Shown: in pieces, positions 4,541 through 22,527 of the stretch
How positions within the stretch are numbered: position 1 is the stretch's first letter
Layout of the letters: each line of letters begins with the position of its first letter
Assembly (NCBI GenBank): GCA_016931955.1
Contig: JAFGDV010000012.1
Location: 1 to 64,000 of the forward strand
DNA length: 64,000 nt
Source of the DNA: Candidatus Altiarchaeota archaeon
GTDB taxonomy: Archaea; Altiarchaeota; Altiarchaeia; IMC4; QMZM01
Reading direction: 5' to 3'
The notes under the pieces: generated by a model
Databases searched by the model: none
What the model was told of the DNA's origin: nothing
What the model saw: only the letters and a program-made list of their open reading frames with translations
Position numbers and translations under genes: made by a program

Positions 4541-4541
4541 C

Positions 4542-8700: not shown

Positions 8701-10001
8701 GTGTCTCCTGTGATTTACTCTATGAGAACAGGACCCATGTTTCCCTGATCACTGAGTTGGAGGGCTTCATCTCTTCCCTCAGCTTTGACTCCGACGGCTC
8801 CCATGTTGTGGTGGCTTCGAACGGCCTTGAGGGTTACGTCAGTTTACTGGAGAACGGCATCCTCATGTGGACTCAACGGATCCCTTCCGCTCTCACGGAT
8901 GTCCGATTCCTTGACGGGGACCGCTTTGTCTCCCCTTATCCTGGAGCTGACGTCTACCTGTTGGACTTGAATGGCGTGAACCGTATGCCCTCGTTCATGG
9001 ATAAGGCAGCAACTGCTGGAATCGTCTGCGGCGTCTCCCGCGGCTCTGAGGTCTTTTTTGTGTTCAACCGCTCCCAGAATCGTTGGATTTATAGCGTCGA
9101 CTCCCAAATCCGTAGGTTCTCGTTCACCGATAACTGTTCTCACCGCGTCGAGGGCTATAGGTTGAGTGAGAACTTCTCCAGTGTCCGGCTTTTCGAGGGC
9201 AAGAACAGGCTGTGGGATCATTCTGTAAGAGATGACGTCTACAGCGTCGACGTCTCATATAATGGCAGCTTTGTCGCCGTCGGCGCCGGCGGCAGGCATA
9301 TTACCGATGACAACTTCATCTATTTCTTCGACAGAGGCGGGAGGCTTCTCTGGAAGCGTTTAGTGGACTGGAACATCTATTCATTGTCTTTATCGGATGA
9401 TGGCGGCTTTGTCCTGGCTGGCTCTCGCAGCGGCGTCGTCTATTTATTCAACGGAAGCGGCAGCCTCCTCTGGTCTTACGAATCGGGTAGCAGCGTCCTG
9501 GACCTTGAATTGTCTTCTGACGGAAAACAGGGGGTCTTCGGTACCTCCTCTGGCCGTCTCTACTATGTGTCTAATCCCTTAGTCAACTGCAGTGACGGCA
9601 TATTGAACATGGGTGAATCCGACGTCGACTGCGGAGGGCCTTGTCCGCCTTGCCGGGTTGGTATGTGGTGTCGCAGCAGGTCTGACTGTCTCTCGGGTTT
9701 CTGCCTTAACGGCTTGTGCAGGACTCCTACCTGCGATGATGGGGTCCGGAATCAAGGCGAGCAGTGGATAGACTGTGGAGGGCCTTGTCTTCCCTGTAAG
9801 CCGAGGTGTTTCCGCGACAGCGACTGCGGCAGGGACTTCGTCAGCGAACCCTACTGTTTCGGCGAATTCGTCTTAGAGGATGATGTCTCTTTTTCCTGCG
9901 TTGACCCTGGCGTCGTGGAGTCTTACTGTGACGTCTACAATGAGACCCGCCTTGTGGAGGCCTGCGTCGATTCAGTATGCATCGATGGGAGGTGTGTTTG
10001 A
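5730..10001 (+). CDS. giant multidomain secreted/membrane protein (Ig-like domains, two internal TM helices, DUF1616-like segment, Cys-rich DCGGxC repeats, beta-propeller)
   Basis: N-terminal signal peptide; LFDDGSHGD motif; hydrophobic segments at about aa 655-705; seven C..DG..N..E...DCGG.C repeats; WD/PQQ-like blades (LSLSDDGGFVLAGS..LLW). Confidence 0.85.
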   Translation: MNKANLSLILILLSASANAALWYDSDTSDSFYWNSRIPVILNESLGVDRIKEPVIVSLTGLNYSSLRVVDPQALPDEEKEVYGNDIPYQINGDELLFLGNVLSRRSKIYYVYFSDDPIERRFYPPQDLIMSHSRYGISVENSKALWEISERGYYFSVSRYENKDFNGSITAAQGLEWGERITSGMGWEGFPAYGGNWNCSTLDSGPIRLRINCSTNLYPYNLIRVYSFYSENAFFEVEEHLDIFDEEWSDSRLQVRNRVDALFNESCNYCFSRYVGDGSFYMAARDVVNSTGGFVFWVMGKGNFSDVGFRKQRSEDSFDYVLRASHNASGIVRFLFREGGILEARREFERFIRPLAYVKPMEYNSLSIFPIPSYDRFYDRGFVVVQAGSRQVYGTDRVDCRIGDNFFALFDDGSHGDLLALDNLWTNKVSFQVTERTPTGEYTVLCEALDRKGNSVSSSSTFPVFDHGSYHNIVFSAGDVRIRPSGSARIPVNVSNLGHFSESEISFGVDAPIGWSISLPEGFDLGINETRNVFIVLSSPSSQALGSIPLTVSTRSRDSIESSHRISVDVELFDVEFDSQISGDEVSLRFLGDDLNPVAYADVLVTHDDLTSSYVTDADGLLSFRADGAAFLEIDVIETGYKPFSIKLGLREKEVSYWFPVSAFIIILLTLFFFRLYWRMPDRDYMEDAFVIALVIGVFITLAWVGFTMRGKESFTALYFPEDSYSGNLSGDSTSFRYAVDCWEHKPTSYNLSVFLGYQLVDVDSFRLGVGDSLQVRYLEREKKINVPLSLGLPARVRLVLSGGNRSYDIHFFLRNRVLNVSNVSVNVTCVDGLLDGDESDLDCGGSCVPCSLDQDCVSHLDCLSGFCLRRACSEPTCFDGVMNQGEQMMDCGGPCLPCHCFNLVTDLDESDIDCGGSCTPCSLDQKCVSHLDCLSGFCFSGLCRTSTCDDKIWGPSELEIDCGGPCPPCPSCFDGVMNQDEIDVDCGGSCVSCDLLYENRTHVSLITELEGFISSLSFDSDGSHVVVASNGLEGYVSLLENGILMWTQRIPSALTDVRFLDGDRFVSPYPGADVYLLDLNGVNRMPSFMDKAATAGIVCGVSRGSEVFFVFNRSQNRWIYSVDSQIRRFSFTDNCSHRVEGYRLSENFSSVRLFEGKNRLWDHSVRDDVYSVDVSYNGSFVAVGAGGRHITDDNFIYFFDRGGRLLWKRLVDWNIYSLSLSDDGGFVLAGSRSGVVYLFNGSGSLLWSYESGSSVLDLELSSDGKQGVFGTSSGRLYYVSNPLVNCSDGILNMGESDVDCGGPCPPCRVGMWCRSRSDCLSGFCLNGLCRTPTCDDGVRNQGEQWIDCGGPCLPCKPRCFRDSDCGRDFVSEPYCFGEFVLEDDVSFSCVDPGVVESYCDVYNETRLVEACVDSVCIDGRCV

Positions 10002-10456
10002 TGGATAGCCTCTACCATTTCGTCTTTGCCTTGGTCGGCGGCTATGTCCTTGTCAAGGGCTTGAATGTCCGGTATAGTTTTCCTTTCCTCGTTGTTCTGG
10101 CTTTTCTCTCTACCTTAATAGATGTTGACCATCTATGGCAATCCCAGATCTTCCATAATCTTTTTGTCCTCGTCCCAGTCTTATTTGTTTTCTTCGTCTC
10201 TTTTTTGTTCAAGCATCGGGGCATCAAACTCTATTCCCTGGTCTTGTTTGTCATGGTCTTCGGCCACTTGTTGGCTGATATGACCTTCGGCATCGGCATT
10301 CCCCTATTTTATCCTCTTAGTGATTCCATGCATCGTTTTCCTTCTTTTGTCATGGAGCCTAACTTTGTCTCTTCTTTTGGTATTGCCTTGTCTCTGTATT
10401 TTGGCTTTATCGCTGTTCTGGTGTTTTCTTACAGGGTGAGAAGATATTTTAACTGA
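10001..10456 (+). CDS. membrane-bound metal-dependent hydrolase (YdjM/DUF457-like)
   Basis: Motifs DVDH, FHN, GHLLAD and GIPLFYP; hydrophobic; TGATG coupling to the upstream gene. Confidence 0.75.
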   Translation: MDSLYHFVFALVGGYVLVKGLNVRYSFPFLVVLAFLSTLIDVDHLWQSQIFHNLFVLVPVLFVFFVSFLFKHRGIKLYSLVLFVMVFGHLLADMTFGIGIPLFYPLSDSMHRFPSFVMEPNFVSSFGIALSLYFGFIAVLVFSYRVRRYFN

Positions 10457-10568
10457 TTTATCCTAGATTTTCTTGTATTTTGTCCCACTTTTTTGGTTTT
10501 TAAATATAAAATGTAATATATTTAAGTCCTATTCTAACCTATGTTGTTGGAAGTGGGGGTGATTGATT

Positions 10569-11453
10569 ATGAAAAAAATCTTAAGCATTGTTTTCAGTAT
10601 CTTTATGTTGACTGTATATGCTTCGGCGTATACCATCGACGGTGACTTGTCTGACTGGGGCGTGACCCCATTCTCTGACTGGATACCTGGCAGCGACACA
10701 TGTGACTGGATCGTTGAAGACAACATCGACCCAGCCCGCACGGGCGATCCTGCCTACCCTGACTGGACGGGTTATTCTGCTACTGGCGTGCATATTCAGG
10801 GGACTGGTAGTTCATCTTCTACGTACAGTGAACCTGTGCTTAATCTTGTGGATTCTTGGTCAGCGGCTCATGGGGGCCATTATCTGCAGCCTGCTGGCGG
10901 CGAACACTACGACATCGAGGCCTTGTACTTTGACGATGACGCCTTTTACGCATATTTCGCCATTGTGACTTCTATGGATTCTAGCGGCTACACTGACCAG
11001 TATGGTAGGCACTGTGATCCAGGCGACTTGGCTCTTGACTTGGACAATAATGGAGTCTACGAGTACGGCATCTACTTGTACGGAGCAAACCAGGGCAAGA
11101 TCTGCCTTAATCCTACTTGGTCTACTCCAGGTAGTTTTCCGTCGAGTTACCCTGACGGCATAGCGAGCTGCAACAACCACGTCGGTAATGCCACTGTTGT
11201 GTATACAAGTGCTGGTGTCTCTGATAATTCAGTCAGCAACTACATAGTAGAGGTCCGAGCGCCTAAGACTGCCTTGGGTGAACCCATATATGGGCAGATC
11301 AGTGACCTGCATATCACGATGACATGCGGCAACGACATCATCGAGCTCTTAGAGTATACGTGGAATTTCCAGGTGCCTGAGTCCGCGGTCGCCGTGGCCT
11401 TGGTTTCTCTCTTGATTCCGGGCTTGATCTACGTTGCCAGAAAGAGGGAATAA
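10569..11453 (+). CDS. secreted PEF-CTERM-like surface protein (VPES variant tail)
   Basis: Signal peptide; IDGDLSDW N-terminal motif; C-terminal VPESAVAVALVSLLIPGLIYVARKRE (motif, TM helix, basic tail); GGGGGTGA RBS upstream. Confidence 0.8.
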   Translation: MKKILSIVFSIFMLTVYASAYTIDGDLSDWGVTPFSDWIPGSDTCDWIVEDNIDPARTGDPAYPDWTGYSATGVHIQGTGSSSSTYSEPVLNLVDSWSAAHGGHYLQPAGGEHYDIEALYFDDDAFYAYFAIVTSMDSSGYTDQYGRHCDPGDLALDLDNNGVYEYGIYLYGANQGKICLNPTWSTPGSFPSSYPDGIASCNNHVGNATVVYTSAGVSDNSVSNYIVEVRAPKTALGEPIYGQISDLHITMTCGNDIIELLEYTWNFQVPESAVAVALVSLLIPGLIYVARKRE

Positions 11454-11488
11454 ATCCCCTCTATTCCTTTTTTATTCTATTCTTCAGT

Positions 11489-11533
11489 TTATGTTTGTTT
11501 TTTCCTTCTATTTCTCGGAGCCAGTCGTCTATT
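11489..11533 (-). repeat. displaced copy F of the 3' end of gene 15514..17604
   Basis: TTTTTTCCTTCTATTTCTCGGAGCCAGTCGTCTATT; the minus strand reads IDDWLREIEGK. Confidence 0.85.
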
Positions 11534-11645
11534 AATTTGATGGTTTATAAGGTGACTTGAGGATATCCAGAGATTGGAGGTGTCTCCGTAAACCGTTTTC
11601 TTTAAGCCTCAAAGATTTAAGCAGCAAATACTGAGTATTAATGAG

Positions 11646-11888
11646 ATGAAAAAGAGGATTATGGGTAAAATATTCGAATTTCCGGTGATAATAGAGAGGG
11701 ATGAATGCGGATATTTCGCGTCATGTCCCCTGCTGCAGGGTTGCTATACGCAGGGAGAAACTTATGAGGAGGTTCTTGAGAATTTGAAGGACGCAATGAG
11801 GCTTCATATAAGAGACCGATTGGAGGCGAAAGAGGAGATCCCTTCTGTGCAGAACATTGCATTAACAACCGTAAGGGTTAGAGCATGA
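11646..11888 (+). CDS. hicB: type II TA antitoxin HicB
   Basis: FPVIIERDE.GYFASCPLLQGCYTQGETYEE signature; ATGA overlap with hicA. Confidence 0.9.
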   Translation: MKKRIMGKIFEFPVIIERDECGYFASCPLLQGCYTQGETYEEVLENLKDAMRLHIRDRLEAKEEIPSVQNIALTTVRVRA

Positions 11889-12115
11889 CTGGAAGGCTTC
11901 CGAGGTTGGATGTTAGGCGGGTAAGCAAGGTTCTTAAAAAACTTGGTTTCACGGTGGCTAGACAATCTGGCAGCCATATGATATTCAAAAATTCTGAGGG
12001 TAAGAGGATAACTCTCCCATATCATTCAAAGAGGATACTGCATCCGAAACTTTTAAAAAGCGTTCTGAAGGATGCTGGAGTATCCATTGAAGAATTCAAA
12101 AGGTTGCTTGGATAG
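11885..12115 (+). CDS. hicA: type II TA toxin HicA (mRNA interferase)
   Basis: LKKLGF...RQSGSHMIF...TLPYH signature. Confidence 0.9.
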   Translation: MTGRLPRLDVRRVSKVLKKLGFTVARQSGSHMIFKNSEGKRITLPYHSKRILHPKLLKSVLKDAGVSIEEFKRLLG

Positions 12116-12125
12116 ACTTCATCCC

Positions 12126-12614
12126 TTATTTTTTCCCTTCTATTGTTATTTTTTTCTCTAATTTGTTTCTTATTTCGTTTATTTTGTTTTCATCGAGTTT
12201 TTGTAGTGTGTATTTGCATTTAACGAGGAATTCTGGTGCTTTTTCAGTCATTTCATTATATTGTTCGTCTGGTATGTTCCTGTTTACATAGTATTGTGCG
12301 TCTATTCTTGCCTTTAGTGAATCCTTTAGGAAATCGATTTCTTCTTTTTTGAAGAACTCTTTGAGGTATTGTTTTGCGAATTCCACTGTGCATGAGTGTA
12401 TTTCGCATTTTATCCCTATTCTGACGAGAATTGAGTACAATGAAAAGTACATTGTATAGTAGGCGGTTGCTATCTCCCAGTCTTTTATTACATTGATTCT
12501 CATTGATTGGAGTGATTCTTCTGCTTTTTTTGTATATGCTTCTGCAAGGTTTGGGTTTGGTTCGACTAGGCTTATCCCTTCTTTCTTTTTCAGGCACCAG
12601 TTGATTTTATCCAT
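12126..12614 (-). CDS. HEPN domain protein
   Basis: Motifs TAYYTMYF, EIHSC and R-x4-Y (RIDAQY); coupled to the upstream MNT. Confidence 0.8.
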   Translation of the reverse strand: MDKINWCLKKKEGISLVEPNPNLAEAYTKKAEESLQSMRINVIKDWEIATAYYTMYFSLYSILVRIGIKCEIHSCTVEFAKQYLKEFFKKEEIDFLKDSLKARIDAQYYVNRNIPDEQYNEMTEKAPEFLVKCKYTLQKLDENKINEIRNKLEKKITIEGKK

Positions 12615-13197
12615 TTTTCAGGACTGTTCTTATGAATTCTTCTGTGTTTGAGAAGACTATGTGGTTGTCTAGTACCTCTTTTATGAGGATGTCATTCCAC
12701 ATGTTTTCTTGGAATATTTTTTTGGGATAGTTTTTGATGCTTGTTTCGATCCCGTACAGGCTGGATGCTTTTTTGGTTTCTTCTTTGTCGTAGTCTCCTG
12801 CAATGAATATGTCTAGGTCTGAGTTTTTTTCTTCGATGCCTTTTGCGTAGCTTCCGAATATTATGCCTATTCCATTGATTGAGGGGGTTATCTTTGTTAG
12901 TAGTTCTCTGATCATTGGTTTGTCTTTGAGGAAGGTTATTTTTTTGTATTGTTCGGTGAATATTAGATAGTCTTTTGCGGTTTCTGTTTTCTTTATTTTG
13001 TATGTTTTTATTTTACCTTTTGTTTTTGATTCTAGGACTGTTTTTTTTTCTAAGTCTCCCAGGATTAGTTGGGCTGTTCTTGGGCTTATCTCCAGGAGCT
13101 TCTGTACTTCTCTTATGTAGTGGTCTTTGTTGAAGCCTTTCGTGTATAAAGCCAATACTTGCAGGTGGTTTTCGGTTATGTTTATTTTTTTATACAT
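12607..13197 (-). CDS. wHTH-fused minimal nucleotidyltransferase (MNT)
   Basis: N-terminal HTH (HYIREVQKLLEISPRTAQ) and the GS-x10-DxD motif FGSYAKG...SDLDIF. Confidence 0.85.
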   Translation of the reverse strand: MYKKINITENHLQVLALYTKGFNKDHYIREVQKLLEISPRTAQLILGDLEKKTVLESKTKGKIKTYKIKKTETAKDYLIFTEQYKKITFLKDKPMIRELLTKITPSINGIGIIFGSYAKGIEEKNSDLDIFIAGDYDKEETKKASSLYGIETSIKNYPKKIFQENMWNDILIKEVLDNHIVFSNTEEFIRTVLKNG

Positions 13198-13198
13198 A

Positions 13199-13228
13199 TG
13201 TATTATTTAGAATACAATCGTATTTAAA
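13199..13228 (-). promoter_or_regulatory. putative operator and TATA box of the MNT-HEPN operon
   Basis: Inverted repeat TGTATT-N6-AATACA (13199-13216) immediately upstream of the start codon, next to a minus-strand TTTAAATA box. Confidence 0.45.
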
Positions 13229-13230
13229 CC

Positions 13231-13278
13231 CTAAGTTTTCTTTTTTCCTTCTATTTCTCGGAGCCAGTCGTCTATTGT
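13231..13278 (-). repeat. displaced copy D of the 3' end of gene 15514..17604
   Basis: The minus strand reads TIDDWLREIEGKKKT-stop. Confidence 0.9.
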
Positions 13279-13298
13279 TCTTTCAGAGGGTTTTATGC

Positions 13299-13643
13299 TC
13301 AGAAATCGATCTCTTTTATGGTTTGTTGTAGTAGTGGTTTGATTTTCGGCATTCTTTCTTTGATGGTTTCCCAGATAAGTTTATAGTCTACTCCAGAGTA
13401 GAAATGTATTAGTCTGTCTCTCATGCCGGCCATTTCTTTCCATGGGATTTCGGGGTGTTTTCACCGTATTTCTTCGGGGATGTGTTTTGTTGCCTCTCCT
13501 ATGATTTCTAGCTTCCTCACTACGGCGCTTGCGGTTTTGTCGTCTTCTCTGAATTTTTCGAAGTCTGATTTACCTACGAATTCTTCGATTTTTTCCACTG
13601 CCTCCAGTATGTCTTTCAAGTAGATCATATGGTCTCTTTTCAT
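13299..13643 (-). pseudogene. hepT: DUF86/HepT-like HEPN RNase toxin with an in-frame TGA
   Basis: The frame continues past TGA (13461-13463): [40 protein letters not shown]...EIDF*, 115 codons, essentially the length of the intact paralogs. The R-x4-H motif lies after the stop. Confidence 0.85.
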
Positions 13644-13933
13644 ATGGGAGTCGCCTCTTTTAATATGCTTTCCTTGAGTTCTTTTCTCAGCGCTCTTCTT
13701 GGTATGATGTCGACTTTTGTGTTTAGTTTTTCTTCGAGGAATAGTGCGAGCCCTGTCAGGTCTATGAGGTCGGCGTCTTCTTTGAAGTCTACTAGTAGGT
13801 CTATGTCGCTTTCTTTTTTGGTCTCGTTTCGGACGTAGGAGCCGAATACTTCTATCTTTTTTATCTTGTATTTCTTGTATAGTTCTGTTTTGTATTCTTT
13901 TAGGGTGTTTTTTATCTCATCAAGTGGTTTCAT
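13640..13933 (-). CDS. mntA: minimal nucleotidyltransferase antitoxin (MntA-like)
   Basis: FGSYVRNE...SDIDLLV motif; ATGA-coupled to the DUF86 gene. Confidence 0.9.
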   Translation of the reverse strand: MKPLDEIKNTLKEYKTELYKKYKIKKIEVFGSYVRNETKKESDIDLLVDFKEDADLIDLTGLALFLEEKLNTKVDIIPRRALRKELKESILKEATPI

Positions 13934-13964
13934 ATCATTATATCTTTGATTTTTTTGTATTAAA

Positions 13965-14077
13965 CCTAGGTCTTTCCTTCTATTTCTCGGAGCCAGTCGT
14001 CTATTGTCTTCTCTACTTCCGCCAGTTTGTGGTGTTCCTGCAGCGGTTTTATATCCACCAAAAAGAAATAGTTAATT
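13965..14077. repeat. displaced copy C of the 15514..17604 tail, plus a duplicated TA promoter region
   Basis: Near-identical to 14734-14852, with a small deletion after CCTAGG. Includes TTTTATATCCACCAAAAAGAAATAGTTAATT. Confidence 0.9.
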
Positions 14078-14091
14078 TGGTAGGTGTTTTG

Positions 14092-14394
14092 ATGGAAAAA
14101 ATCAAAGTAAACGATAGGTTGGTGAATTTTAAGAGGAAGGTTATTCCCGTCCTTAAGCGAAACGGTGTGGTGAGGGCGGGGGTGTTCGGCTCATTTGCTC
14201 GTGGGGAGGCTAAGAAGGGTAGTGACGTTGATATCCTGATTGAAATAAGGGGTAGGAAGAGCCTTTTTGATCTTGCGAGGTTGGAGATTGAGTTAGAGAA
14301 AAGGGTGGGACAGAAGGTGGATGTGGTTGAATATTCAACAGTTCATCCTCTGCTGAAGGATAGGATCTTGAAAGAGGAAGTGCAGGTACTATGA
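14092..14394 (+). CDS. mntA: minimal nucleotidyltransferase antitoxin (MntA-like)
   Basis: FGSFARGE...SDVDILIE motif. Start at ATG 14092 (MEKIK); the upstream extension in the ORF track runs through repeat DNA. Confidence 0.9.
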   Translation: MEKIKVNDRLVNFKRKVIPVLKRNGVVRAGVFGSFARGEAKKGSDVDILIEIRGRKSLFDLARLEIELEKRVGQKVDVVEYSTVHPLLKDRILKEEVQVL

Positions 14395-14738
14395 AAAAGG
14401 ATGTGCGTGTGTTTCTGTTGGATATCCTGGAGTGTATTGAGAAGATTGAGGAATACACTGGTGACATAAGCAAGGAGGAATTTCTTGGGGAGACATGGAT
14501 TCAGGATGCAGTGCTCAGACGAGTGGAGGTCATCGGTGAAGCTGCGAAGAATATACCTGATAGTTTCAAGAAGACTCATCCGGGTTTGCCTTGGAGTGAG
14601 ATGGCTAGGACGAGGGATAGGCTTATCCATGGATATTTTGGTGTTAATCTTGAGCGTGTTTGGGTTATTGTGAAGGATGATCTCCCTGACTTGAAGAAGA
14701 AGATCAAGAAGATCCAAGAGGATCTGGAAACATCCTAG
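14391..14738 (+). CDS. hepT: DUF86/HepT-like HEPN RNase toxin
   Basis: Motifs QDAVLRRVEVIGEA and R-x4-H (RDRLIHGYFG). Confidence 0.9.
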   Translation: MKKDVRVFLLDILECIEKIEEYTGDISKEEFLGETWIQDAVLRRVEVIGEAAKNIPDSFKKTHPGLPWSEMARTRDRLIHGYFGVNLERVWVIVKDDLPDLKKKIKKIQEDLETS

Positions 14739-14852
14739 GTCTTCTTTTTTCCGTCTATTTCTCGGAGCCAGTCGTCTATTGTCTTCTCTACTTCCGCCAG
14801 TTTGTGGTGTTCCTGCGGCGGTTTTATATCCACCAAAAAGAAATAGTTAATT
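14677..14852. repeat. displaced copy B: direct repeat of the hepT end plus the 15514..17604 tail
   Basis: 14677-14816 matches 15456-15595 (140 bp, 4 mismatches by eye); the right part also matches copy C. Confidence 0.92.
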
Positions 14853-14864
14853 GTAGATGTTGTG

Positions 14865-15173
14865 ATGGAAAAGGTTGTGCTACGTGATAAGCGTTTAATG
14901 GATTTGGGGAGGAGGATAGTTCCTGTACTTAAACGTAACAAGGTTGTGCGGGCAGGGATTTTTGGTTCGTTCGCGAGGGGGGACTTCAAGAGGGGTAGTG
15001 ATATCGATATCTTGATCGAGGTGAAGGCGAAGAAATTTAGTTTATTTGATTTGGTTGGGCTTGAATTGGAATTGAAGAAGGTGTTGGGGAGAGATGTGGA
15101 TTTGTTGACGTATAATGGGATTAATCCTCTCTTGAGGGATAGGATCTTGGGGGAGGAGGTAAGGATAATATGA
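14865..15173 (+). CDS. mntA: minimal nucleotidyltransferase antitoxin (MntA-like)
   Basis: FGSFARGD...SDIDILIE motif; paralog of 14092..14394. Confidence 0.9.
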   Translation: MEKVVLRDKRLMDLGRRIVPVLKRNKVVRAGIFGSFARGDFKRGSDIDILIEVKAKKFSLFDLVGLELELKKVLGRDVDLLTYNGINPLLRDRILGEEVRII

Positions 15174-15517
15174 AAAAAGAGCCGTTGATTTTTATTAAGC
15201 ACATATTGGGGAGTATTGAGAACATAGAATCTTTTTCTCGGGGACTTTCTAAGAGTGAATTTTCGGGGGATAGATTGAGGCAGAGTGCTGTTATTAGGGA
15301 AATAGAGATAATCGGGGAAGCTGTGAAGAATTTGCCCACAGAATTCACGGTCAAGTATCCTAGTGTGGAGTGGAGCAGGATTGCCGGTACCCGCGATAAA
15401 GTAATCCATCACTATTTTGGAGTTGATGCGGACGTTATCTGGGATATTATAGAATATGATCTCCCTGACTTGAAGGAGAAGATCAAGAAGATCCAAGAGG
15501 ATCTGGAAACATCCTAG
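15170..15517 (+). CDS. hepT: DUF86/HepT-like HEPN RNase toxin
   Basis: Motifs QSAVIREIEIIGEA and RDKVIHHYFG. Its stop shares a CTAG with the convergent gene. Confidence 0.9.
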   Translation: MKKEPLIFIKHILGSIENIESFSRGLSKSEFSGDRLRQSAVIREIEIIGEAVKNLPTEFTVKYPSVEWSRIAGTRDKVIHHYFGVDADVIWDIIEYDLPDLKEKIKKIQEDLETS

Positions 15518-17604
15518 GTCTTCTTTTTTCCGTCTATTTCCTTGAGCCAGTCGTCTATTGTCTTCTCTACTTCCGCCAGTTTGTGGTGTTCCTGCAGTAG
15601 TTTTTCTTTTTTCTGGTGTATTTGTTCCCACCATTTTTCGACTTCTTCTGGGGTCTTTGGCATCCGGTGGTGTTCTTCGGTGGTCTTCTTTATTATCAAT
15701 GTGGCGGCTATTATGCTTACTACCAGCATTACTATTAGCACCTCTGTTATCGGCAGCTCTCCCTCTTTTTTAGGTGTCAATGGTTCTGGGTCTATTAGGT
15801 CTTCTATTCCGTCTCCGTCTGTGTCTTTGTTGTATGGGTTCGTGCCTTTCTGGCTTTCTTCGTAATCTGTTAGCCCGTCTTTGTCTGAGTCTATGAACAT
15901 GGTCTCTGGTTGCAGTGGGTGGGGGTCTATTCCGTCTATCAGCTTGTCTCCGTCTGTGTCGTTTTTGTATGGGTCTGTTCCCATCATCGTCTCATTGTAG
16001 TTGCTGAGTCCGTCCTTGTCTGAGTCTATGAACAGGTCCTTGTGCAGTAACGGGTATTTGTCTAGTGAGTCTATCATCCCGTCGCCGTCTGTGTCGTTGT
16101 TGTATGGGTCTGTGCCTATCCTTAATTCATCATAGTCTAGTATTCCGTCTCCGTCGGCATCGTATATGAGGTCTTCTTTTATGAGTGGGTGCGGGTCGTA
16201 CATGTCTGTTATCCCGTCGCCGTCTGTGTCTACGTTATAGGGGTTTGTCCCGCTCATTGTCTCGTTGTAGTCGCTTAGTCCGTCTCCGTCTGAGTCCGTG
16301 TAGAGGTCTTCTGTTTCCAGTGGGTGGGGGTCCATTGAATCCGGTAATCCATCCCCGTCGGTGTCTTTGTTTGTCTTGTTCGTCCCCATCACCTTCTCCA
16401 CGTAGTCTATGACTCCGTCCTCGTCTGTGTCGTTTGTGTACCCGAATAGGTACATCTTGTTGTCGTTGGCTCCTATCAGTAGTTCGGGTATTTTGTCTCC
16501 GTTCAGGTCCACTATCTTTGGTGTTGACTGTATTGAGGTGTTCAGCCAGTGGCTCCATTTCCTGGTCAGGTTCCAATCCAGCACATATATTGTCCCCTTT
16601 GTCGTGGCCACTATTATATCTTTTCTGCCGTCTAGGTCTATGTCTTCTACTTGTGGTTTCGTTTTTATGGCGCCGTCTAGTGTTGTCTTCTTTTTGAGTT
16701 TTCCGTTGTAGTCTAGCATGTACAGGTTTTTGTCTGTTGACCCGAATATTACCTCTGTTGTTCCATTGTTGTCTATGTTGTTTATCGTCGGAGCCGCCTC
16801 TATCCCTCCCTTCGTTGTGTAGTTCCATCTCCTGTATACTTCGTAGACGTCGTATTCTTTTCCAGTCGTCTTTCTATGCCCTAGTGAATGCATTATTCCG
16901 TCCCCTGATCCTGCGAATATTTCTCTCCCGTTTGTTTCCACCGCTAGTATGTCTCCTCCTGTCTGGTAGCTCCATATTGACAGCATCGGGTATTTTATTA
17001 TGTATACTTTGTTGTCGTCTGATCCTAGTATTATCTCTGGTTCTTTGTCTGCGTCTATGTCTGTTATCTTTGGCGTTGACTGTATTTTGTCCATGGTCTT
17101 GTATTCCCACACGTGTTTTCCTTTTAGGTCTAGTAGGTATATTCTCGCGTCTCCTGACGTCAACGCTATCAGTTGTTTTCCTTTGAATTCGCCTGTCGCC
17201 GCTGCTCCCATTATTTTCCCCTTGGTCGTGTAGTTCCACATATGTGTTCCATTACTGTTTATCGCGTACACTATTCCATCCCATGCTCCTACTATCACGT
17301 CCTTTAGTGTGTCGTTGTTTAGGTCTATCAGTAATGGAGTTGAGGATATGCTTCCCCCTGTCTTGTAGCTCCATTCTTCTCTTCCTAGCGCGTCTACCAC
17401 ATATATTTTTCCGTCTCGGCTTCCGTATATTATCTCCGTTATTGTGTCGTTGTCTATGTCTGCTGTTGCCGGCGCCCCTGTATTCCAGTTTTCTGCTGTG
17501 TGCGTCCATATTATCCCGAATCCCTCTAAACTGAGGTTTTCCTGTGCTGTCGCCTGCATCGTCAGTATCAGCAGCATTATCGTGATTGCTTTTTTTGTCT
17601 GCAT
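15514..17604 (-). CDS. secreted membrane-anchored protein: FG-GAP/PQQ-like beta-propeller plus thrombospondin type 3-like Ca-binding repeats
   Basis: Signal peptide; repeated D(I/L)(D/N).D...EII.GS.D blades; about five GTNP.N.DTDGDG..D..DP.PL repeats; C-terminal TM helix and cytoplasmic tail. Confidence 0.88.
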   Translation of the reverse strand: MQTKKAITIMLLILTMQATAQENLSLEGFGIIWTHTAENWNTGAPATADIDNDTITEIIYGSRDGKIYVVDALGREEWSYKTGGSISSTPLLIDLNNDTLKDVIVGAWDGIVYAINSNGTHMWNYTTKGKIMGAAATGEFKGKQLIALTSGDARIYLLDLKGKHVWEYKTMDKIQSTPKITDIDADKEPEIILGSDDNKVYIIKYPMLSIWSYQTGGDILAVETNGREIFAGSGDGIMHSLGHRKTTGKEYDVYEVYRRWNYTTKGGIEAAPTINNIDNNGTTEVIFGSTDKNLYMLDYNGKLKKKTTLDGAIKTKPQVEDIDLDGRKDIIVATTKGTIYVLDWNLTRKWSHWLNTSIQSTPKIVDLNGDKIPELLIGANDNKMYLFGYTNDTDEDGVIDYVEKVMGTNKTNKDTDGDGLPDSMDPHPLETEDLYTDSDGDGLSDYNETMSGTNPYNVDTDGDGITDMYDPHPLIKEDLIYDADGDGILDYDELRIGTDPYNNDTDGDGMIDSLDKYPLLHKDLFIDSDKDGLSNYNETMMGTDPYKNDTDGDKLIDGIDPHPLQPETMFIDSDKDGLTDYEESQKGTNPYNKDTDGDGIEDLIDPEPLTPKKEGELPITEVLIVMLVVSIIAATLIIKKTTEEHHRMPKTPEEVEKWWEQIHQKKEKLLQEHHKLAEVEKTIDDWLKEIDGKKKT

Positions 17605-17636
17605 TTTAGTATATTATTAATTCTCTTTCGATTAAA

Positions 17637-17933
17637 ATGGATGTCTTATCTCTTGTTCGGGTTGTCTTGGGTCTTTTCTTTTATCTCTTTGTCCCCGGCT
17701 TCGCAGTGTCTTATGCCATCTTCCCCAAGGAAGAGATCGACTTGATTGAAAGGATCACTCTTTCTCTGGCCTTCAGCGTCACCATGACTCCCTTATTCGT
17801 CTTAATCCTGAATCTTTCTCTCGGAGTCGAATATTTTCCCATCGACCTTCTTCATTCTCTCCTGGCCTCTCTTTTCCTGATCTTTGTTTCCTGTCTTGTC
17901 TGGCTTTATAGGGTGGGTCGTCTGAGATTTTGA
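17637..17933 (+). CDS. DUF1616-like small membrane protein
   Basis: LGLFFYLFVPGFAVSYAIFP..IDLIERITLS is the typical N-terminus of this archaeal family; three hydrophobic segments. Confidence 0.75.
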   Translation: MDVLSLVRVVLGLFFYLFVPGFAVSYAIFPKEEIDLIERITLSLAFSVTMTPLFVLILNLSLGVEYFPIDLLHSLLASLFLIFVSCLVWLYRVGRLRF

Positions 17934-17973
17934 TTTTTTTGTCTGTATGAGTGCGAGCCTACTATTATCTCTG

Positions 17974-18103
17974 TTCATCATGTCTATTTCCCTTCGTCTT
18001 CTTTGTTGTTGGCTGCAGTTGTAGGTGATCTTGGCGGGAGTGTGTTTTAGAGTTTCTGTAGGGTGTTTTTTGTTTTGTCTATTAGTTCTTCTATGTTGTC
18101 TGC
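17974..18103. repeat. composite displaced fragment: PEF-CTERM tail remnant plus the 3' end of abiEii
   Basis: 18013-18103 matches 18974-19064 (91 bp, 3 mismatches); 18004-18027 matches 24918-24941 at 23/24; 17974-17992 is identical to 22805-22823. Confidence 0.88.
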
Positions 18104-18244
18104 AGCTGTTATGTATTGTTGTTCTTTGTATAGCGTTTTGTGGTGTCTCTGTTCTCTGCTGGGTTTTAGGAGGCGAACAATATTGTGTTGTAGGGTGTGG
18201 GGGACTATAGTTGGGGGGTGGTGTCTGTGAACTCTTTTGAGGGG

Positions 18245-18493
18245 TTATTTGTAGATGTTTTTTCTGTGCCCTATCTTTAGGACTAGGATTAGGAGTTTGT
18301 CTTTTTCTATGTCCATTAGGATTCGGTGGTCTCCGACTCTTAGTTTGTAGCCGGGGTCTCCCACTAGTTTGGTGACGTGGGCTTCGGGTCGTATTCTGAT
18401 TCTTTCTATTGCCGAGATTATTCTTTCCTGCTGTTCTCGTCCGAGTTTTTTGTATTGTTTTTTGGCTGTGTCTGAGAAGAAGACGTCGTACAT
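18245..18493 (-). CDS. relE: type II TA toxin, RelE/ParE family
   Basis: YDVFFSDTAKKQYKKL...YKLRVGDHRIL...KIGHRKNIY signature. Confidence 0.9.
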   Translation of the reverse strand: MYDVFFSDTAKKQYKKLGREQQERIISAIERIRIRPEAHVTKLVGDPGYKLRVGDHRILMDIEKDKLLILVLKIGHRKNIYK

Positions 18494-18709
18494 TTATTTC
18501 ATCTCTGCTTTTATTTGGTTGAGTGTGTGGATTTTCCCTGCTTTTATTTCGGCGCGGGCTTCTTCTAGTTCTTTTTTTGTTTCGGCGTTCAGTTCTGTTG
18601 TGTCTTCGATCAGGTTTTGGATTACTTCTTCGTAGGTTTCTCTGTCGGAGAGTTTTCTTTTGTTTAGTGTTTCCTGTAGTTTGTTGCTTATCTGGATCGT
18701 AGTTGCCAT
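18494..18709 (-). CDS. cognate antitoxin (ribbon-helix-helix-like)
   Basis: MATTIQIS...ETYEEVI..LIE; abuts relE; imperfect inverted repeat ACTATAGTATGTTATAGT upstream. Confidence 0.85.
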   Translation of the reverse strand: MATTIQISNKLQETLNKRKLSDRETYEEVIQNLIEDTTELNAETKKELEEARAEIKAGKIHTLNQIKAEMK

Positions 18710-18876
18710 AGTAAACTATAGTATGTTATAGTATATAAATACCCCCATGCATCCATCTGTATCGAGCTGACTGTATGTGTTTATTCTCCAAAGGAACCCG
18801 CATATTTCAACGTTTTTTGTTTGTTGGGGGTAGCATAGGATCTGTTGGCTGTCTAAGGAAGAAAACTCTTTCTCTT

Positions 18877-18990
18877 TTATCTGCGTCTTGTTATCAGGTA
18901 CGCTACTGTCGGCGTCGTCAGCAGTATTAGTATTGTTGTCTCTGTGGTGTTGTATTCTGGCACCTGTTTTTGTCTGCAGCTGTAGGTGAT
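18877..18990 (-). pseudogene. orphan PEF-CTERM sorting-signal fragment with no gene body
   Basis: The minus strand reads ITYSCRQKQVPEYNTTETTILILLTTPTVAYLITRRR*, compared with TYTCSQQQVPEFNTIGIILIILTTPGIAYLITRKR* at the end of 24833..25654. Confidence 0.85.
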
Positions 18991-19007
18991 TGTGGCGGGA
19001 GTGTGTT

Positions 19008-19844
19008 TTAGAGTTTCTGTAGGGTGTTTTTTGTTTTGTCTATTAGTTCTTCTATGTTGTCTGCCATGTCTCTGCTTACTCTGTAGGAGGATATGAAGCC
19101 TTTTATTCTGTCTTCTCTCAGCTTTAGTAGGTTGGTTTGGCAGGAAGTGATCACTTCCTCTGTTTTGTGGCTGCTTCCTCTCCTCCGAAGGTCTCTTCTA
19201 ATCTCTGTGGGTACCTGGCTGTAATCGATCCTCTTTTTCGGATAGTTTATGAGTGCTATCACGTCGAATAGGTCTTTGTAGTGGGCTCGGCCTACGTGGA
19301 CCTTATCTGATCTGGCAGAGATCACAATCTTGTTGGCGAGTAGCATCTCTATTGGAGTTATCTTCTGTTTGAATGCGTAGTCGTCTAATATGCCTGGGAG
19401 CGTGTTGAAGTCTGTTTCATCTGGTTTTCTTAGGACTGTCTTTGTGTTGACTTGTACTTTGATTAGGTGGGCGTTGATTTTTTCGCCTTCGAATCGTGTC
19501 TCTGTTTTGTATATTGTCGGAGCTATTCTGTAGTAGGTCAGGGCTCCTGTGAATCTGTTGTATTTGCCTCCTCTTAGCCCTAGTTCCTCCATCTCTGTTC
19601 GTGTTTCTTCTATTGTTTTCTCTTCTTCGAGGTCGTAGTCTAAGTCCATTGATATCCTCCTGTTTGTTTCTTTTATGAACTGTTGGACTGCTGTGCCTCC
19701 TTTTAAGACGATTTTTTGTCTGCGGAGGAGGTTTGCTGTGTCCATGAGCCATATCAGGAACTCGGTTTGTAGTCGGGGGTGGCCTGTTTTCTCTGATATT
19801 CTTTTTATGTTTTCTTCGTTCAGCAGCTGTTTTAGTTCATGCAT
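19008..19844 (-). CDS. abiEii: type IV TA toxin, AbiEii nucleotidyltransferase
   Basis: Motifs LKGGTAV, RISMDLDY, ANKI and YKDLFDV. Confidence 0.88.
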   Translation of the reverse strand: MHELKQLLNEENIKRISEKTGHPRLQTEFLIWLMDTANLLRRQKIVLKGGTAVQQFIKETNRRISMDLDYDLEEEKTIEETRTEMEELGLRGGKYNRFTGALTYYRIAPTIYKTETRFEGEKINAHLIKVQVNTKTVLRKPDETDFNTLPGILDDYAFKQKITPIEMLLANKIVISARSDKVHVGRAHYKDLFDVIALINYPKKRIDYSQVPTEIRRDLRRRGSSHKTEEVITSCQTNLLKLREDRIKGFISSYRVSRDMADNIEELIDKTKNTLQKL

Positions 19845-20550
19845 TTATTCCTCCTTCTATGAATTTTCGTTCTTCTTCTGTCGGTTTTTTTTGTGTTGTC
19901 TTTACCTTGTAGCCTTTCTCTGATAGGACTGTGAGTATCTTTTTCAGGTATTCTAGTGTTCCTGTTTCTTGGGCTGCTTCTGTGAGTTGCTTCTGGTTGA
20001 ATCCTCTTTCTATGTAGTCGCATATGGCTGGTATGGCGTAGAACTGTATTATTTCTGGCTCCATTAGTAGGGTTTCTGTTATCGCTGTTTCGGGTGTGGC
20101 TATGTTGGCTTCTCTGTCTTCGAAGACTGTTCTTCTGTAGTTTTCTTTTTTTATCTGCCTCTTTATTGTTTTTATCTCGGCTTCCATTGTTTTGTTGTAG
20201 GCTTTTATCTGTTTATCGTCTTCTACTGTGAGGTAGTATTCTCTGCTGGATGCGAGTCCGTAGTATGATAGTGCTGATGGTCCTGTGATATAGTATCCTT
20301 GGTTGTATGTTTTTTCCATGAAGCCTATGATGTCTTTTCCGTAGGTGTTTTTTATCAGGTATTCTTCTGGTTTGTTTAGTTTGTATCTTCCTTTGGCTGT
20401 TTTTGTTATCATTCCTTTTTTCTGCATTCTGGTGGCGACTACTTTTGCGTTGTTTTCGGTTGTATTCAGTATTCTGCTTATGTCTTTTGTTGTGAATTCT
20501 TTTTCCCCGAGTCTCAGGTATAGTAGGGTGTAGCGTTCGGTGATTTTCAT
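19837..20550 (-). CDS. abiEi: type IV TA antitoxin, AbiEi-like (wHTH)
   Basis: N-terminal wHTH (..KGMITKTAKGRY), YITGPSALSYYGL and IATPETAI; overlaps the abiEii start. Confidence 0.85.
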   Translation of the reverse strand: MKITERYTLLYLRLGEKEFTTKDISRILNTTENNAKVVATRMQKKGMITKTAKGRYKLNKPEEYLIKNTYGKDIIGFMEKTYNQGYYITGPSALSYYGLASSREYYLTVEDDKQIKAYNKTMEAEIKTIKRQIKKENYRRTVFEDREANIATPETAITETLLMEPEIIQFYAIPAICDYIERGFNQKQLTEAAQETGTLEYLKKILTVLSEKGYKVKTTQKKPTEEERKFIEGGINA

Positions 20551-20581
20551 TTTTTGTAACTTGTAACATAATTACTGTTTT

Positions 20582-20604
20582 TGTAACTTAAATATCAAGT
20601 TACA
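20582..20604. promoter_or_regulatory. putative AbiEi operator
   Basis: 23-bp inverted repeat TGTAACTT-N7-AAGTTACA overlapping a TTAAATA box upstream of abiEi, with additional TGTAAC half-sites at 20555-20567. Confidence 0.65.
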
Positions 20605-20641
20605 GAAATCGTAACTATTCCCTGATTTTGATTTACGCGGG

Positions 20642-20715
20642 TCTTTTTCTCTTCCTCAGGTACGCTATTCCCGGCGTCGTCTTTGTTGTTTGTCTCTGTG
20701 GTGTTGTATTCTGGC
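20642..20715 (-). repeat. decayed PEF-CTERM tail copy
   Basis: The minus strand reads PEYNTTET, then after a frameshift TTPGIAYLRKRKR; it shares long stretches with 18895-18961. Confidence 0.8.
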
Positions 20716-20792
20716 TCTTTATTCGTCAGTGTGGATGCTCCGTGTTGTTGTCTTGCACTGTTTTTTTTGGAGGGAATCAGTTGTGCTTGTTT

Positions 20793-21161
20793 TTAGAGAA
20801 GCTTTTTAATGTCCTCAATAAGCTTTTCGGCTGCTGTTATAGCTTCTTCTGCATCGGCTTTTGAGATGTCTGATATGATTCCATAGTCTGCTTTCTCTCT
20901 TTCTTCTTGTGTTGTTGCAAAATCCCTGAAGGTGTCTTGGCTTAGTTCTCCTGTTTTAACGTATTCTTCGGCGATTTTGGGTATAACTCCTCTATGTGTT
21001 TTTGGATAGATGTCTTTTGTAGATAGTAGAGCTCTTGCTGCGAAGAACATTGAGTAGTATGCCCTGCTTAAAGCATCAGAGTAGTGTTTGTCTTCCAGTA
21101 AGTCTTTTGCTGCTTCGAGTTTTTCTCTTGCTTTTTCCATTAACATGTCTTTTTCATCCAA
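20793..21161 (-). CDS. HEPN domain protein
   Basis: Motifs ALSRAYYSMF, PKTHRGV and REKADY. Confidence 0.9.
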   Translation of the reverse strand: MDEKDMLMEKAREKLEAAKDLLEDKHYSDALSRAYYSMFFAARALLSTKDIYPKTHRGVIPKIAEEYVKTGELSQDTFRDFATTQEEREKADYGIISDISKADAEEAITAAEKLIEDIKKLL

Positions 21162-21465
21162 TTAGAACACCATTTTTTTCTATTTCGGAGATGAAGTGTG
21201 TTTTTCTGATTTTTTTGTAGTCTTTTTGTGTGATGATTTTTGCTGAGATGTAGACTGATTTTTCTAGGAGGGTTTTGACTACGTCTTCCATTATTTTTTT
21301 CTTTATTTTTCTTTTGCTGCTTTCTGAGATTAGCATCATGTCTATGTCTGACTTTTCCTTGTCTTTTCCGCTTGCTACGGAGCCGTAGAGTATGATTTTT
21401 TTTATTTCTGGGTTTTTTTTCTTGACTGTGTATGCGAAATCTTCTGCTATTTTTTTTCTGTTCAT
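21154..21465 (-). CDS. minimal nucleotidyltransferase (MNT)
   Basis: ILYGSVASG...SDIDMM motif; overlaps the HEPN start. Confidence 0.88.
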   Translation of the reverse strand: MNRKKIAEDFAYTVKKKNPEIKKIILYGSVASGKDKEKSDIDMMLISESSKRKIKKKIMEDVVKTLLEKSVYISAKIITQKDYKKIRKTHFISEIEKNGVLIG

Positions 21466-21509
21466 TTTTTTGGTAAAGGTATTTTGTTTTCCAGATTTAA
21501 AATGGTTTT

Positions 21510-21635
21510 CCGGCGTCGTCTTTGTTGTTTGTCTGCATGTGTGGGTGGTTGTTACTGTTTTTGTAACTTAAATATACAGAAATCGTAACTATCCCCTGAT
21601 TTTCATCAAATATGCTGTCCCAGGAGTCGTTTTTA
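21510..21635. repeat. composite repeat: PEF-tail fragment, duplicated abiE promoter, second PEF-tail fragment
   Basis: 21510-21534 is identical to 20671-20695; 21552-21603 matches 20572-20629 with a 6-bp deletion; about 21592-21633 on the minus strand reads KTTPGTAYLMKIRG. Confidence 0.8.
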
Positions 21636-21689
21636 TTCTTGGATGGGGGTCAGTTCAGGGATTGTTGGTGAGGTGGGTGGGGTGGATAA

Positions 21690-22298: not shown

Positions 22299-22527
22299 CT
22301 AGTGTCTTGGAGAATTCTCCGCTGGCTACTGCGCGGATGAATTTGAGTTGCATGTCGACGAAGTTTCTGCCGACTTCGTCTTCTGCTTGTATGTGTTTTT
22401 TAAGCTCTTCTTTGGTGTAGACGCCTTTCTCTCCTACTGATAGCTTGAAGTGGCTGGGTACGCTGGTTTCTAGGCGCCATAGTACTAGTTCTTTGACTTC
22501 TTTGTCGAGTTTCTTTTTGTCTTTCAT
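22288..22527 (-). CDS. small conserved-looking hypothetical protein (protease module gene 2)
   Basis: 79-aa ORF, ATGA-coupled on both sides. Confidence 0.75.
   Translation of the reverse strand: MKDKKKLDKEVKELVLWRLETSVPSHFKLSVGEKGVYTKEELKKHIQAEDEVGRNFVDMQLKFIRAVASGEFSKTLAET

Follow-up and report, generated by a model that had tools for sequence, protein, structure and literature searches.

Toxin-antitoxin (TA) modules have been stacked, one behind another, at the 3' end of a surface-protein gene in the genome of a Candidatus Altiarchaeota archaeon (assembly GCA_016931955.1). In the window, by which we mean the whole stretch of 64,000 nucleotides (nt) analysed here (contig JAFGDV010000012.1, positions 1 to 64,000), copies of the end of this gene recur downstream of it with TA genes between them, and their arrangement shows at least four successive insertions of minimal TA cassettes, each made up of a promoter and two genes. 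Each insertion is read as having duplicated the then-current gene end (36-84 nt), with the attached copy keeping the gene whole and the other copy pushed downstream. Comparison across the assembly indicates that the surface-gene locus is one of three such arrays and that direct repeats flank most TA modules of the genome, and comparison further afield indicates that the footprint extends to a sizeable minority of MNT-HepT modules elsewhere. We interpret the stacked cassettes, with a probability of about 0.6, as products of repeated 'insertion with long target duplication', which would be independent of a recombinase and protected by addiction.

Displaced gene ends and the cassettes between them

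The window is part of contig C23 in a genome bin (G000) of 1.55 Mb, 46 contigs and 92% completeness. The surface protein combines beta-propeller/FG-GAP and TSP3 repeats with a transmembrane helix and a short cytoplasmic tail (Pfam), and the tail ends in ...TIDDWLKEIDGKKKT-stop. A 27-nt core of the tail sequence, TCTATTTCTCGGAGCCAGTCGTCTATT, has exact matches at 11507, 13250, 13979 and 14754 and lies within the gene end itself, at 15533, with 3 mismatches (0 matches expected from 100 shuffles). The extents of the tail copies, set by ungapped comparison, are given below with the gene and the modules of the locus.

15514-17604, minus strand: target gene, surface protein of 696 amino acids (aa) (open reading frame, ORF; Pfam; syntenic ortholog in genome G002 with 56% identity)
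15514-15597, minus strand: T0, the tail still joined to the gene (28 codons, stop included), with the alleles Lys (AAG) and Asp (GAC)
14819-15513, plus strand: cassette A, MNT1 14862-15173 and HepT1 15170-15517 (Pfam)
14735-14818, minus strand: T1, an 84-nt displaced tail with the Arg and Asp alleles and, at the inner edge, a unique CTGCGG
14044-14734, plus strand: cassette B, MNT2 14092-14394 and HepT2 14391-14738 (Pfam)
13965-14043, minus strand: T2, a 79-nt displaced tail with the Arg and Glu alleles and an in-frame 6-nt deletion
13279-13964, minus strand: cassette C, MNT3 13640-13933 and HepT3 13299-13643 (Pfam)
13230-13278, minus strand: T3, displaced tail of 49 nt, reading ...TIDDWLREIEGKKKT-stop; alleles Arg and Glu
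12126-13197, minus strand: module D, MNT protein of 196 aa (12607-13197), then HEPN protein (12126-12614) (Pfam)
12130-12146, minus strand: probable decayed tail copy, now the last codons (TIEGKK-stop) of the HEPN gene
11646-12115, plus strand: module E, HicB 11646-11888 and HicA 11885-12115 (Pfam)
11494-11533, minus strand: T4, displaced tail of 40 nt, the oldest; 1 mismatch to T3

The displaced copies shorten away from the gene (84, 79, 49 and 40 nt), and all four carry CTCGG (Arg, CGA) where the gene has CCTTG (Lys, AAG). A first-pass annotation made from the sequence alone had placed tail recurrences at 14735, 13965, 13231 and 11489 and had remarked on both their shortening and the allele difference, and all three observations stood once the copies were located by the core and by ungapped comparison. 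Compared with T0, T3 has two synonymous changes in addition to its Arg and Glu alleles. Read by eye into its outer flank, T4 continues into a longer C-terminus, ...EIEGKNKHKLKNRIKKE-stop / ...EGKNKHKLKNRIKKE-stop, with a stop codon at 11462-11464, only 8 nt away from where the convergent gene 10563-11453 stops. The annotation had also mentioned a possible trace of the tail at 12126, which gains support: 12130-12146 matches the tail minus the 21 nt between its two TCTATT repeats with 1 mismatch (0 expected, 100 shuffles; the test was designed post hoc, with the site already seen), and it is probably a fifth tail remnant, between modules D and E.

Searching with Pfam confirmed the module contents proposed at first sight, namely HicBA on the plus strand, MNT-HEPN and an MNT-HepT pseudogene on the minus strand and MNT-HepT twice on the plus strand, and with them the occurrence of modules in both orientations. 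The proposal of one TA module per interval, made on the condition that the trace at 12126 is counted, applies without that condition to the three gene-proximal intervals only; there are just four intervals between clear copies, and the farthest holds both D and E. Inserts at the locus measure 686-1707 nt and contain TA genes only, with every ORF of at least 40 aa between the tails being a TA gene or a shadow frame of one. The HepT1 stop overlaps the surface-gene stop within CCTAGG, and the HepT3 toxin gene of cassette C is broken by a single in-frame TGA. The MNT protein of module D has an N-terminal extension, for which the designation 'wHTH' holds only via likeness to a homolog on contig C40 (phmmer; the HTH matches are on the homolog). 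A TATA-like TTTATAT, seen by eye 40-45 nt upstream of the MNT start in A and B, is a putative promoter element.

The order in which the modules arrived can be read from the tails. T3 ends in ...EGKKKT-stop, with its stop codon located in the edge of the first insert, and the same newer end is present in T2, T1 and T0; the GK(KK)T-stop end carried by these four is absent from T4 and first arises at the edge of the oldest insert. Moreover, the repeat common to T3 and T2 reaches into insert-derived sequence. Because the copies are nested in this way, with later copies holding sequence made by an earlier insertion, the array can be read as a record of serial insertions, in the order D/E, then C, then B, then A, the newest adjoining the gene. 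The earlier suggestion of a cassette-accretion locus is also supported, at which small TA units (0.69-1.7 kb) are serially added at the end of a protein-coding gene.

Differences between the tails comprise Arg/Lys, Glu/Asp, two synonymous changes and the in-frame loss of two Lys codons. When the three arrays of the genome were pooled, 11 of the 19 distinct substitutions between displaced and attached tails fell at third codon positions (binomial p 0.024), and the sole indel was the in-frame one of 6 nt, with no frameshift. The displaced tails thus look like snapshots of functional coding sequence.

Comparison of the locus between relatives, proposed in the first-pass annotation, identified a candidate empty site in G002, a genome of the same family and another genus. 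Synteny there extends over a large surface protein, a YdjM-like membrane protein, the surface-gene ortholog and DUF1616, and the gap from YdjM to the gene end is 74 nt, with one tail and no cassettes, as against 5 kb in the window; from the gene order, this site represents the empty-site state. The surface-gene ortholog in G004 has a different, longer tail, and in G001, of the same genus, the locus is rearranged.

A search of the 1.55-Mb genome, supplemented by an nhmmer profile, did not find the tail repeat elsewhere. The junction DNA had no match in 60 relatives, except for one 21-nt hit at chance level, and exact scans of metagenome and genome contig collections for the core, with the Lys/Arg codon left open, gave no match. 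With the repeat confined to the locus, as these genome and relative searches suggested in the first-pass annotation now indicate, a dispersed repeat such as a MITE (miniature inverted-repeat transposable element) was ruled out.

Further downstream, at 10462-10480 and six bases past the YdjM stop, lies ATCCTAGATTTTCTTGTAT, which by eye is identical at 15/19 positions to the start of T0, ATCCTAGG...; it may be a very old gene-end remnant, or a likeness that arose by chance where the DNA is rich in T. Over positions 1-28000 of the window the AT skew is strongly negative (down to -0.52), with a sign switch near 29 kb, and the T-/G-rich plus strand of that region makes short T-rich chance matches likelier.

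Direct repeats around modules elsewhere

The genome was surveyed with a short-range direct-repeat scan followed by a flank-against-flank scorer, applied to 15 TA intervals including four of the surface-gene locus. Direct repeats scoring at least 22 flanked 11 of the 15, compared with 15 of 1491 gene-aligned one- or two-gene units at the same threshold (the positives being mostly tandem paralogs) and 13 of 1500 random intervals at a threshold of 20. Across the 11 TA intervals the repeats are 22-105 nt long. They span the stop codon at the surface gene, at AbiEii, at a 295-aa gene (C23) and at a V4R gene (C40), and on contig C28 they cover a gene start region. In at least nine inserts the TA pair lies within 0-255 nt of both repeats, with no integrase fragments or other cargo.

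A second array lies in the window at 17974-22850, and its features are as follows.

17974-18022, 18894-18961, 20656-20715, 21497-21543 and 22805-22850, no strand assigned: repeat J, five copies (nhmmer E 2e-6 to 3e-3, these five only)
18004-18103, minus strand: displaced copy, 95% over 100 nt, of 18965-19064; the two copies bracket the ParE cassette
18245-18709: ParE/antitoxin
19008-20550: AbiEii/AbiEi-like pair
20793-21465: HEPN/MNT
21690-22100, 22288-22527 and 22524-22712: small ORFs without a Pfam match

The outermost J copies (17974-18019 and 22805-22848; 85% identical) bracket an island of 4.8 kb. The source of the 100-nt copy, 18965-19064, consists of the last 57 nt of the AbiEii gene and 43 nt downstream of it.

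In the third array, at C40:6161-8587 (L270:1161-3587), the end of a V4R-domain gene (8552-9805, minus strand) is repeated at 8037, 7226 and 6161, and the copies separate HicAB, a PIN_3 protein and an HTH-MNT plus HEPN pair. The tail reads ...SECEFWAKKL-stop, and the copies differ at synonymous sites. One displaced tail of this array is fused in frame to the start of the annotated MNT ORF.

Repeats also flank a module at C23:71510-72282 (L086), where MNT-HepT is bracketed by two copies of the terminal 53 nt of the 295-aa gene. Its HepT is broken by a TAA, and the HepT stop and gene stop overlap, as in A and B. The distal copy keeps an older stop (...EKLV-stop), and the gene now ends ...EKLVV-stop. 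The ortholog of the 295-aa gene in G008 has a different downstream neighbour and no clean empty site.

Two side observations concern a HicB gene and ATPase genes. A contig of another genus (L079:917-1208, on contig C14 of G004) carries a HicB with 87.5% protein and 81% DNA identity to that of the window; homology runs from the promoter region through the first ~20 nt of HicA, the toxin gene is gone, and the orphan antitoxin has no flanking repeat. Direct repeats of 43-59 nt also occur near AAA_14/DUF4143-type ATPase genes: one pair (window 59466-59524 and C23:64034-64092) lies in paralogous coding sequence, and the second (C23:63935-63977 and 65770-65812) flanks a single gene.

Beyond this genome, we drew on 160 loci retrieved with HepT2 from unrelated bacterial and archaeal contigs of many phyla, with 138 MNT-HepT modules having enough flank to score. 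A repeat score of at least 30 was reached by 12 of the 138 modules and by 1 of 422 control intervals in the same loci; at a score of at least 20, the counts were 19/138 and 3/422. In the 12 top modules, inserts of 671-1042 nt are enclosed by repeats that measure 47-121 nt and are 88-100% identical. At a cutoff of 90% identity these modules form 11 clusters (121 for the 148 module pairs of all loci), and in no case (0/12) do they overlap paralogous MNT/HepT genes. Among the foreign loci in general, inserts flanked by repeats measure 671-1149 nt and hold the TA pair only. The left repeat copy contains the 3' end of an ORF of 273-740 codons in 4 of the 19 loci at a score of at least 20, with only L178 among those at 30 or more, and one foreign ORF tail within a repeat reads ...KEYIVQDGDVVVFKI-stop.

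A stacked arrangement was present at L175, on a single-contig Methanolobus chromosome (positions 1818-5610), where five local copies of a 22-38-nt repeat with a palindrome (GCCGC..GCGGC) separate HicAB-like, RelE-like and MNT-HepT modules (ORFs read by eye, not by Pfam); three further copies occur in the 2.9 Mb. On a metagenome contig (L121, 2494-5603), MNT and HepT homologs stand in series and a 79-nt direct repeat (74/79) brackets the first module.

Relation to known insertions and arrays

To our knowledge, chromosomal TA modules are plainly exchanged between genomes yet lack a transposase or integrase, and their movement is a long-standing open point; TA loci are said to have been termed 'mobile cassettes' by Pandey and Gerdes in 2005. 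The locus, with the genome-wide and cross-taxon counts, offers a countable footprint for this mobility, namely long, variable, target-derived repeats that often hold the 3' end of a neighbouring gene, and it ties the movement of TA modules to a process hitherto described for restriction-modification genes alone.

That process, insertion with long target duplication, was set out for restriction-modification genes by Furuta, Abe & Kobayashi 2010 (PMC2853133), with credit to Nobusato et al. 2000. In PMC2853133, the direct repeats exceed 30 bp, vary in length, duplicate the target, in many cases across a start or stop codon, and come with no mobility gene, and such flanking repeats were significantly commoner than for other genes. 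DNA breakage by the cargo was suggested as a common cause, the proposed life cycle comprised insertion, amplification through the repeats and release, and no archaeal case passed the screen (PMC2853133). Similarities to the present inserts include an addictive gene pair in less than 20 kb without an integrase or resolvase gene, direct repeats that exceed 30 bp, occur at the locus alone and derive from the target, a repeat length that varies by site, the spanning of stop codons and a target gene left whole. The inserts described here differ in their cargo, which consists of type II/IV TA genes (HepT, HEPN, HicA, ParE, AbiE, PIN) that are not DNA-cutting, in their archaeal host and in the repetition of the event three to four times at one gene end to give ordered arrays. 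HepT, HicA, ParE and PIN are toxins without DNA-cutting activity, so cleavage by the cargo cannot be what the footprint depends on, which narrows the mechanisms to host repair or recombination together with selection by addiction.

The likeness to an integron or tandem att array that the first-pass annotation drew was not supported. Integron arrays are built of small cassettes, most with a single function and none with its own recombinase, added at one end, and TA cassettes, found in chromosomal superintegrons, are thought to stabilise them. The present arrays share the small cassettes, the lack of their own recombinase and the growth at one end; unlike integrons, they have no IntI and no attI/attC hairpins, their separators are copies of the 3' end of a host gene, and their cassettes lie on both strands, apparently each with its own putative promoter region, where integron cassettes share one orientation and a common promoter. 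Acinetobacter plasmids carry dif modules that are likewise small, often TA pairs, without a recombinase gene, arranged serially and shuffled between replicons. Those modules are plasmid-borne and bounded by 28-bp XerC/XerD sites in alternating orientation, whereas here the repeats are direct copies of a chromosomal target without Xer symmetry. Archaeal integrase-bearing elements have been described in the 3'-distal parts of genes that code for proteins, with element-supplied stops and at times in tandem arrays (Krupovic et al. 2019, PMC6563490), and our inserts resemble them in the 3' target, the flanking direct repeats, the insert-supplied stop and the arrays formed by re-use of a site. The elements of PMC6563490 range from kb to tens of kb and encode an integrase or casposase, as opposed to 0.67-1.7 kb and a TA pair only here.

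Our full-text literature search found no long target duplications described for TA modules, for archaea or for stacked arrays, and in publications pairing 'long target duplication' with 'toxin-antitoxin', as far as these were covered, the phrase was cited for restriction-modification genes only. The earlier remark that no description of the arrangement was known thus applies to the stacked TA arrays, and does not extend to the single step, which is known for restriction-modification genes (PMC2853133). The novelty lies in meeting the process with TA modules, in an archaeon, in the form of ordered arrays and at a sizeable minority of MNT-HepT modules elsewhere; the elementary step has precedent. 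The stacked arrays provide a means to order insertion events in time, and they are natural landing pads that could perhaps be used for marker-free insertion in archaea.

Mechanism and alternative explanations

The mechanism is probably a homology- or repair-based copying that needs no recombinase. We infer that no dedicated enzyme is involved, because the repeats derive from the target, differ in length and have no sequence relation from one locus to another. With a cargo made up of RNases, a gyrase poison and nucleotidyltransferases, cutting of DNA by its own proteins is not the cause either. Two stages could account for the arrays. A rare illegitimate or repair-type event would first create a cassette flanked by a duplicated gene end, and the duplicated end would then serve as a portable homology arm, able to carry the cassette into any chromosome or array position with the same tail. 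By one route, break repair or synthesis-dependent strand annealing from the DNA of a sibling strain, a recipient with a break in its tail would use one arm for strand invasion, copy through the cassette and anneal in the second arm, and so gain a cassette plus a tail at an empty or an occupied site alike. By another, a looped-out circle would integrate by a single crossover and yield the same product. Such homology arms would lead to repeated use of one site, growth next to the gene, tails that resemble functional alleles of sibling strains and cargo in both orientations.

Recombination between repeats would delete ordinary inserts, and the loss of an active TA pair would be penalised by its toxin. 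TA (and restriction-modification) cassettes would consequently persist as repeat-flanked inserts because deletion of an active pair is punished, and the cassettes with broken toxins (cassette C and that at 71.5 kb of C23) would be the next to be lost.

Several observations weigh against this interpretation. One gene end was hit four times and two other sites three to four times, and repeated hits at few sites imply a hot spot or sequence preference. A site preference could also be indicated by a composite motif, GTCTATTTC..GTCGTC..TATTGT, recognised post hoc, which occurs genome-wide only at T0, at T1 and at 22813-22836, in the outermost repeat of the second array. The sharing between A and B of 34 nt upstream and ~57 nt of the HepT 3' end is not explained by pure target duplication and calls for homology carried by the cassettes, for gene conversion or for membership of one cassette family. 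The Arg-to-Lys difference consists of three adjacent base changes in one codon with almost nothing else changed, which is odd for point mutation. No repeat scoring at least 22 was detected at 4 of the 15 TA intervals of the genome, and 119 of the 138 foreign MNT-HepT modules lack a repeat scoring at least 20. The single-copy state of the repeat before insertion is itself inferred, with no nucleotide-level empty site in a close relative: the G002 tail, at 49% protein identity, is too diverged for a base-by-base alignment of the repeat, and no closer genome was found. Lastly, among Logan contigs of one probable source run and one run of the same study (k-mer length k = 31, blind to joints across exact repeats of at least 35 nt), those of the probable source run end at every tail and none provides a joint across a cassette. 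These contigs stood in for the raw reads in which the first-pass annotation had proposed to look for excision junctions; no joint skipping a cassette was present, and at k = 31 none could have appeared.

The leading alternative, which we regard as unlikely, is a site-specific system acting in trans, whether integron-like, Xer-like or based on an archaeal integrase, in which the tail would hold an att site and small non-autonomous cassettes with a matching site would be moved by a Xer-like enzyme encoded on contig C38 or by the recombinase of an unbinned plasmid or virus. Such a system would fit the fourfold use of one site, the entry of A and B at exactly equal 84-nt boundaries and their common contiguous block of ~175 nt (HepT 3' end, tail and promoter), as expected of an attachment region; the post hoc motif, common only to T0, T1 and the repeat at 22813, would also agree with it. 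Archaeal att sites measure 29-69 bp and arrays formed through re-use of a site are documented (PMC6563490), and Acinetobacter plasmids carry dif modules with TA genes that lack their own recombinase. However, repeat boundaries vary between insertions (40, 49 and 79-84 nt), and the repeats at other TA modules are unrelated in sequence and derive from their own neighbours; profiles of the T and J families, searched in both directions, found no cross-match at E up to 10. Only one chance-level pair of inverted repeats was found in 10000-18500, and hairpin folding of three junctions on both strands was no better than for shuffles (z -1.6 to +0.4). The repeats are direct and target-derived and lack the inverted symmetry of 28-bp dif-like sites, which have two inverted arms around a 6-bp centre (no archaeal dif consensus search was made), and no common termini were found among 12 repeat-bounded inserts, except in A and B. 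Transposons or MITEs agree no better, given the lack of common termini, a repeat that is not dispersed and duplications that are long and variable.

The enzymes encoded in the genome do not favour a trans system either. A genome-wide recombinase search, which the first-pass annotation had proposed, returned a single tyrosine recombinase, on C38, with archaeal XerA as its best model (72 bits; cutoff 220) and 21 bits with the integron-integrase model (cutoff 265); no serine recombinase was found in the 92% complete genome. The window had no match to an integrase or resolvase family (transposase families were not searched), in agreement with the earlier statement that no integrase lies in or near the array. 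The resemblance to an integron or att array served by a dedicated recombinase was therefore not upheld, with no IntI, no hairpins and, A and B excepted, no conserved ends.

For A and B alone, tandem amplification can be considered, in which a unit of tail plus MNT-HepT was duplicated by unequal crossing-over, the interiors diverged and the junctions were converted. A and B have the same architecture, with periods of 775 and 779 nt, and are each other's closest relatives in the genome (phmmer), and amplification of repeat-flanked restriction-modification units has been reported (PMC2853133). Their interiors, however, share only about 55-65% DNA identity, with a sharp shift to 93-100% at the ends (14044-14077 matches 14819-14852, the 34 nt upstream of MNT; 14678-14734 matches 15457-15513), such that near-identity spans the last ~57 nt of HepT, the 84-nt tail and the 34 nt upstream of MNT. 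Only a few bases separate T1 from T2, and with so little difference there while the interiors stand at ~55-65%, the pair is not a recent in-place duplication that simply diverged. Amplification would need very long times and continuous homogenisation of the junctions alone, and gives no account of C, D, E or the other arrays with unrelated TA families, making it in our view improbable. The matching ends are open to two readings: two related cassettes may have arrived separately from a pool with these ends, or gene conversion starting in the tails may have made the cassette ends alike. A pool of this kind outside the genome was not found among the 160 loci, in which the best HepT2 relatives had 65% protein identity and none had the tail or junction.

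We attach a similarly low probability to the intervals being whittled-down islands, that is, remnants of integrase-bearing elements in which only the addictive TA pair is left. Integration into 3'-distal parts of archaeal protein-coding genes, with an element-supplied stop and in tandem arrays, is on record (PMC6563490). TA pairs are generally known to resist loss. Yet the inserts with a TA pair 0-255 nt from both repeats (at least nine) contain no cargo fragments, random deletion should often have taken the useless distal repeat too, and the repeat-flanked foreign inserts, at 671-1149 nt, are again confined to a TA pair.

An assembly artefact, in which repeats or their order would be a product of assembling short reads from a mixture of strains (with A and B, for instance, as alleles joined serially), is suggested by a metagenome bin of 46 contigs, by identical A/B ends that exceed the k-mer length and by Logan contigs that end at each tail and leave the cassette order unverifiable from short reads, but is very improbable given that T1 has a unique combination (Arg, Asp and CTGCGG) that a chimeric T2/T0 path would not produce, that Logan contigs reproduce the T4-T3, T3-T2 and HepT2-T1 junctions without differences and end exactly where B diverges from A, so that a second sequence with the same ends exists in the sample, that the displaced copies are biologically sensible (old stop codons, synonymous differences), and that the footprint recurs on three other contigs and in foreign assemblies, including the single-contig Methanolobus chromosome. 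In the 56% of the run examined, no contig extended over positions 14792-15567, which comprise the A interior and that part of T0 with the Lys allele; this proves nothing. The Logan contig covering cassette C (window 13249-14002) had a depth of 26.9, compared with 36.6-40.2 for its neighbours, and would fit partial loss from the population; as one figure per contig this is weak, and it was not used.

Returning to insertion with long target duplication, one broader generalisation can be put forward tentatively and with considerable doubt: such duplication would be the general entry footprint of addiction modules, both TA and restriction-modification, and a gene end acting as a portable homology arm would, through host recombination alone, give rise to recombinase-free, integron-like arrays in bacteria and archaea, with the displaced ends forming an ordered fossil record of the 3' end of a host gene. 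If the mechanism is only the survivorship of rare illegitimate events, the footprint would be a useful annotation rule and no more.

A further observation concerns the joints themselves. CTGCAG occurs at the inner boundary of T0 (15597/15598) and of T2 (14043/14044), and also near both ends of the 100-nt ParE repeat (18011-18016 and 18100-18105); it may be due to chance or may reflect microhomology used at the joints.

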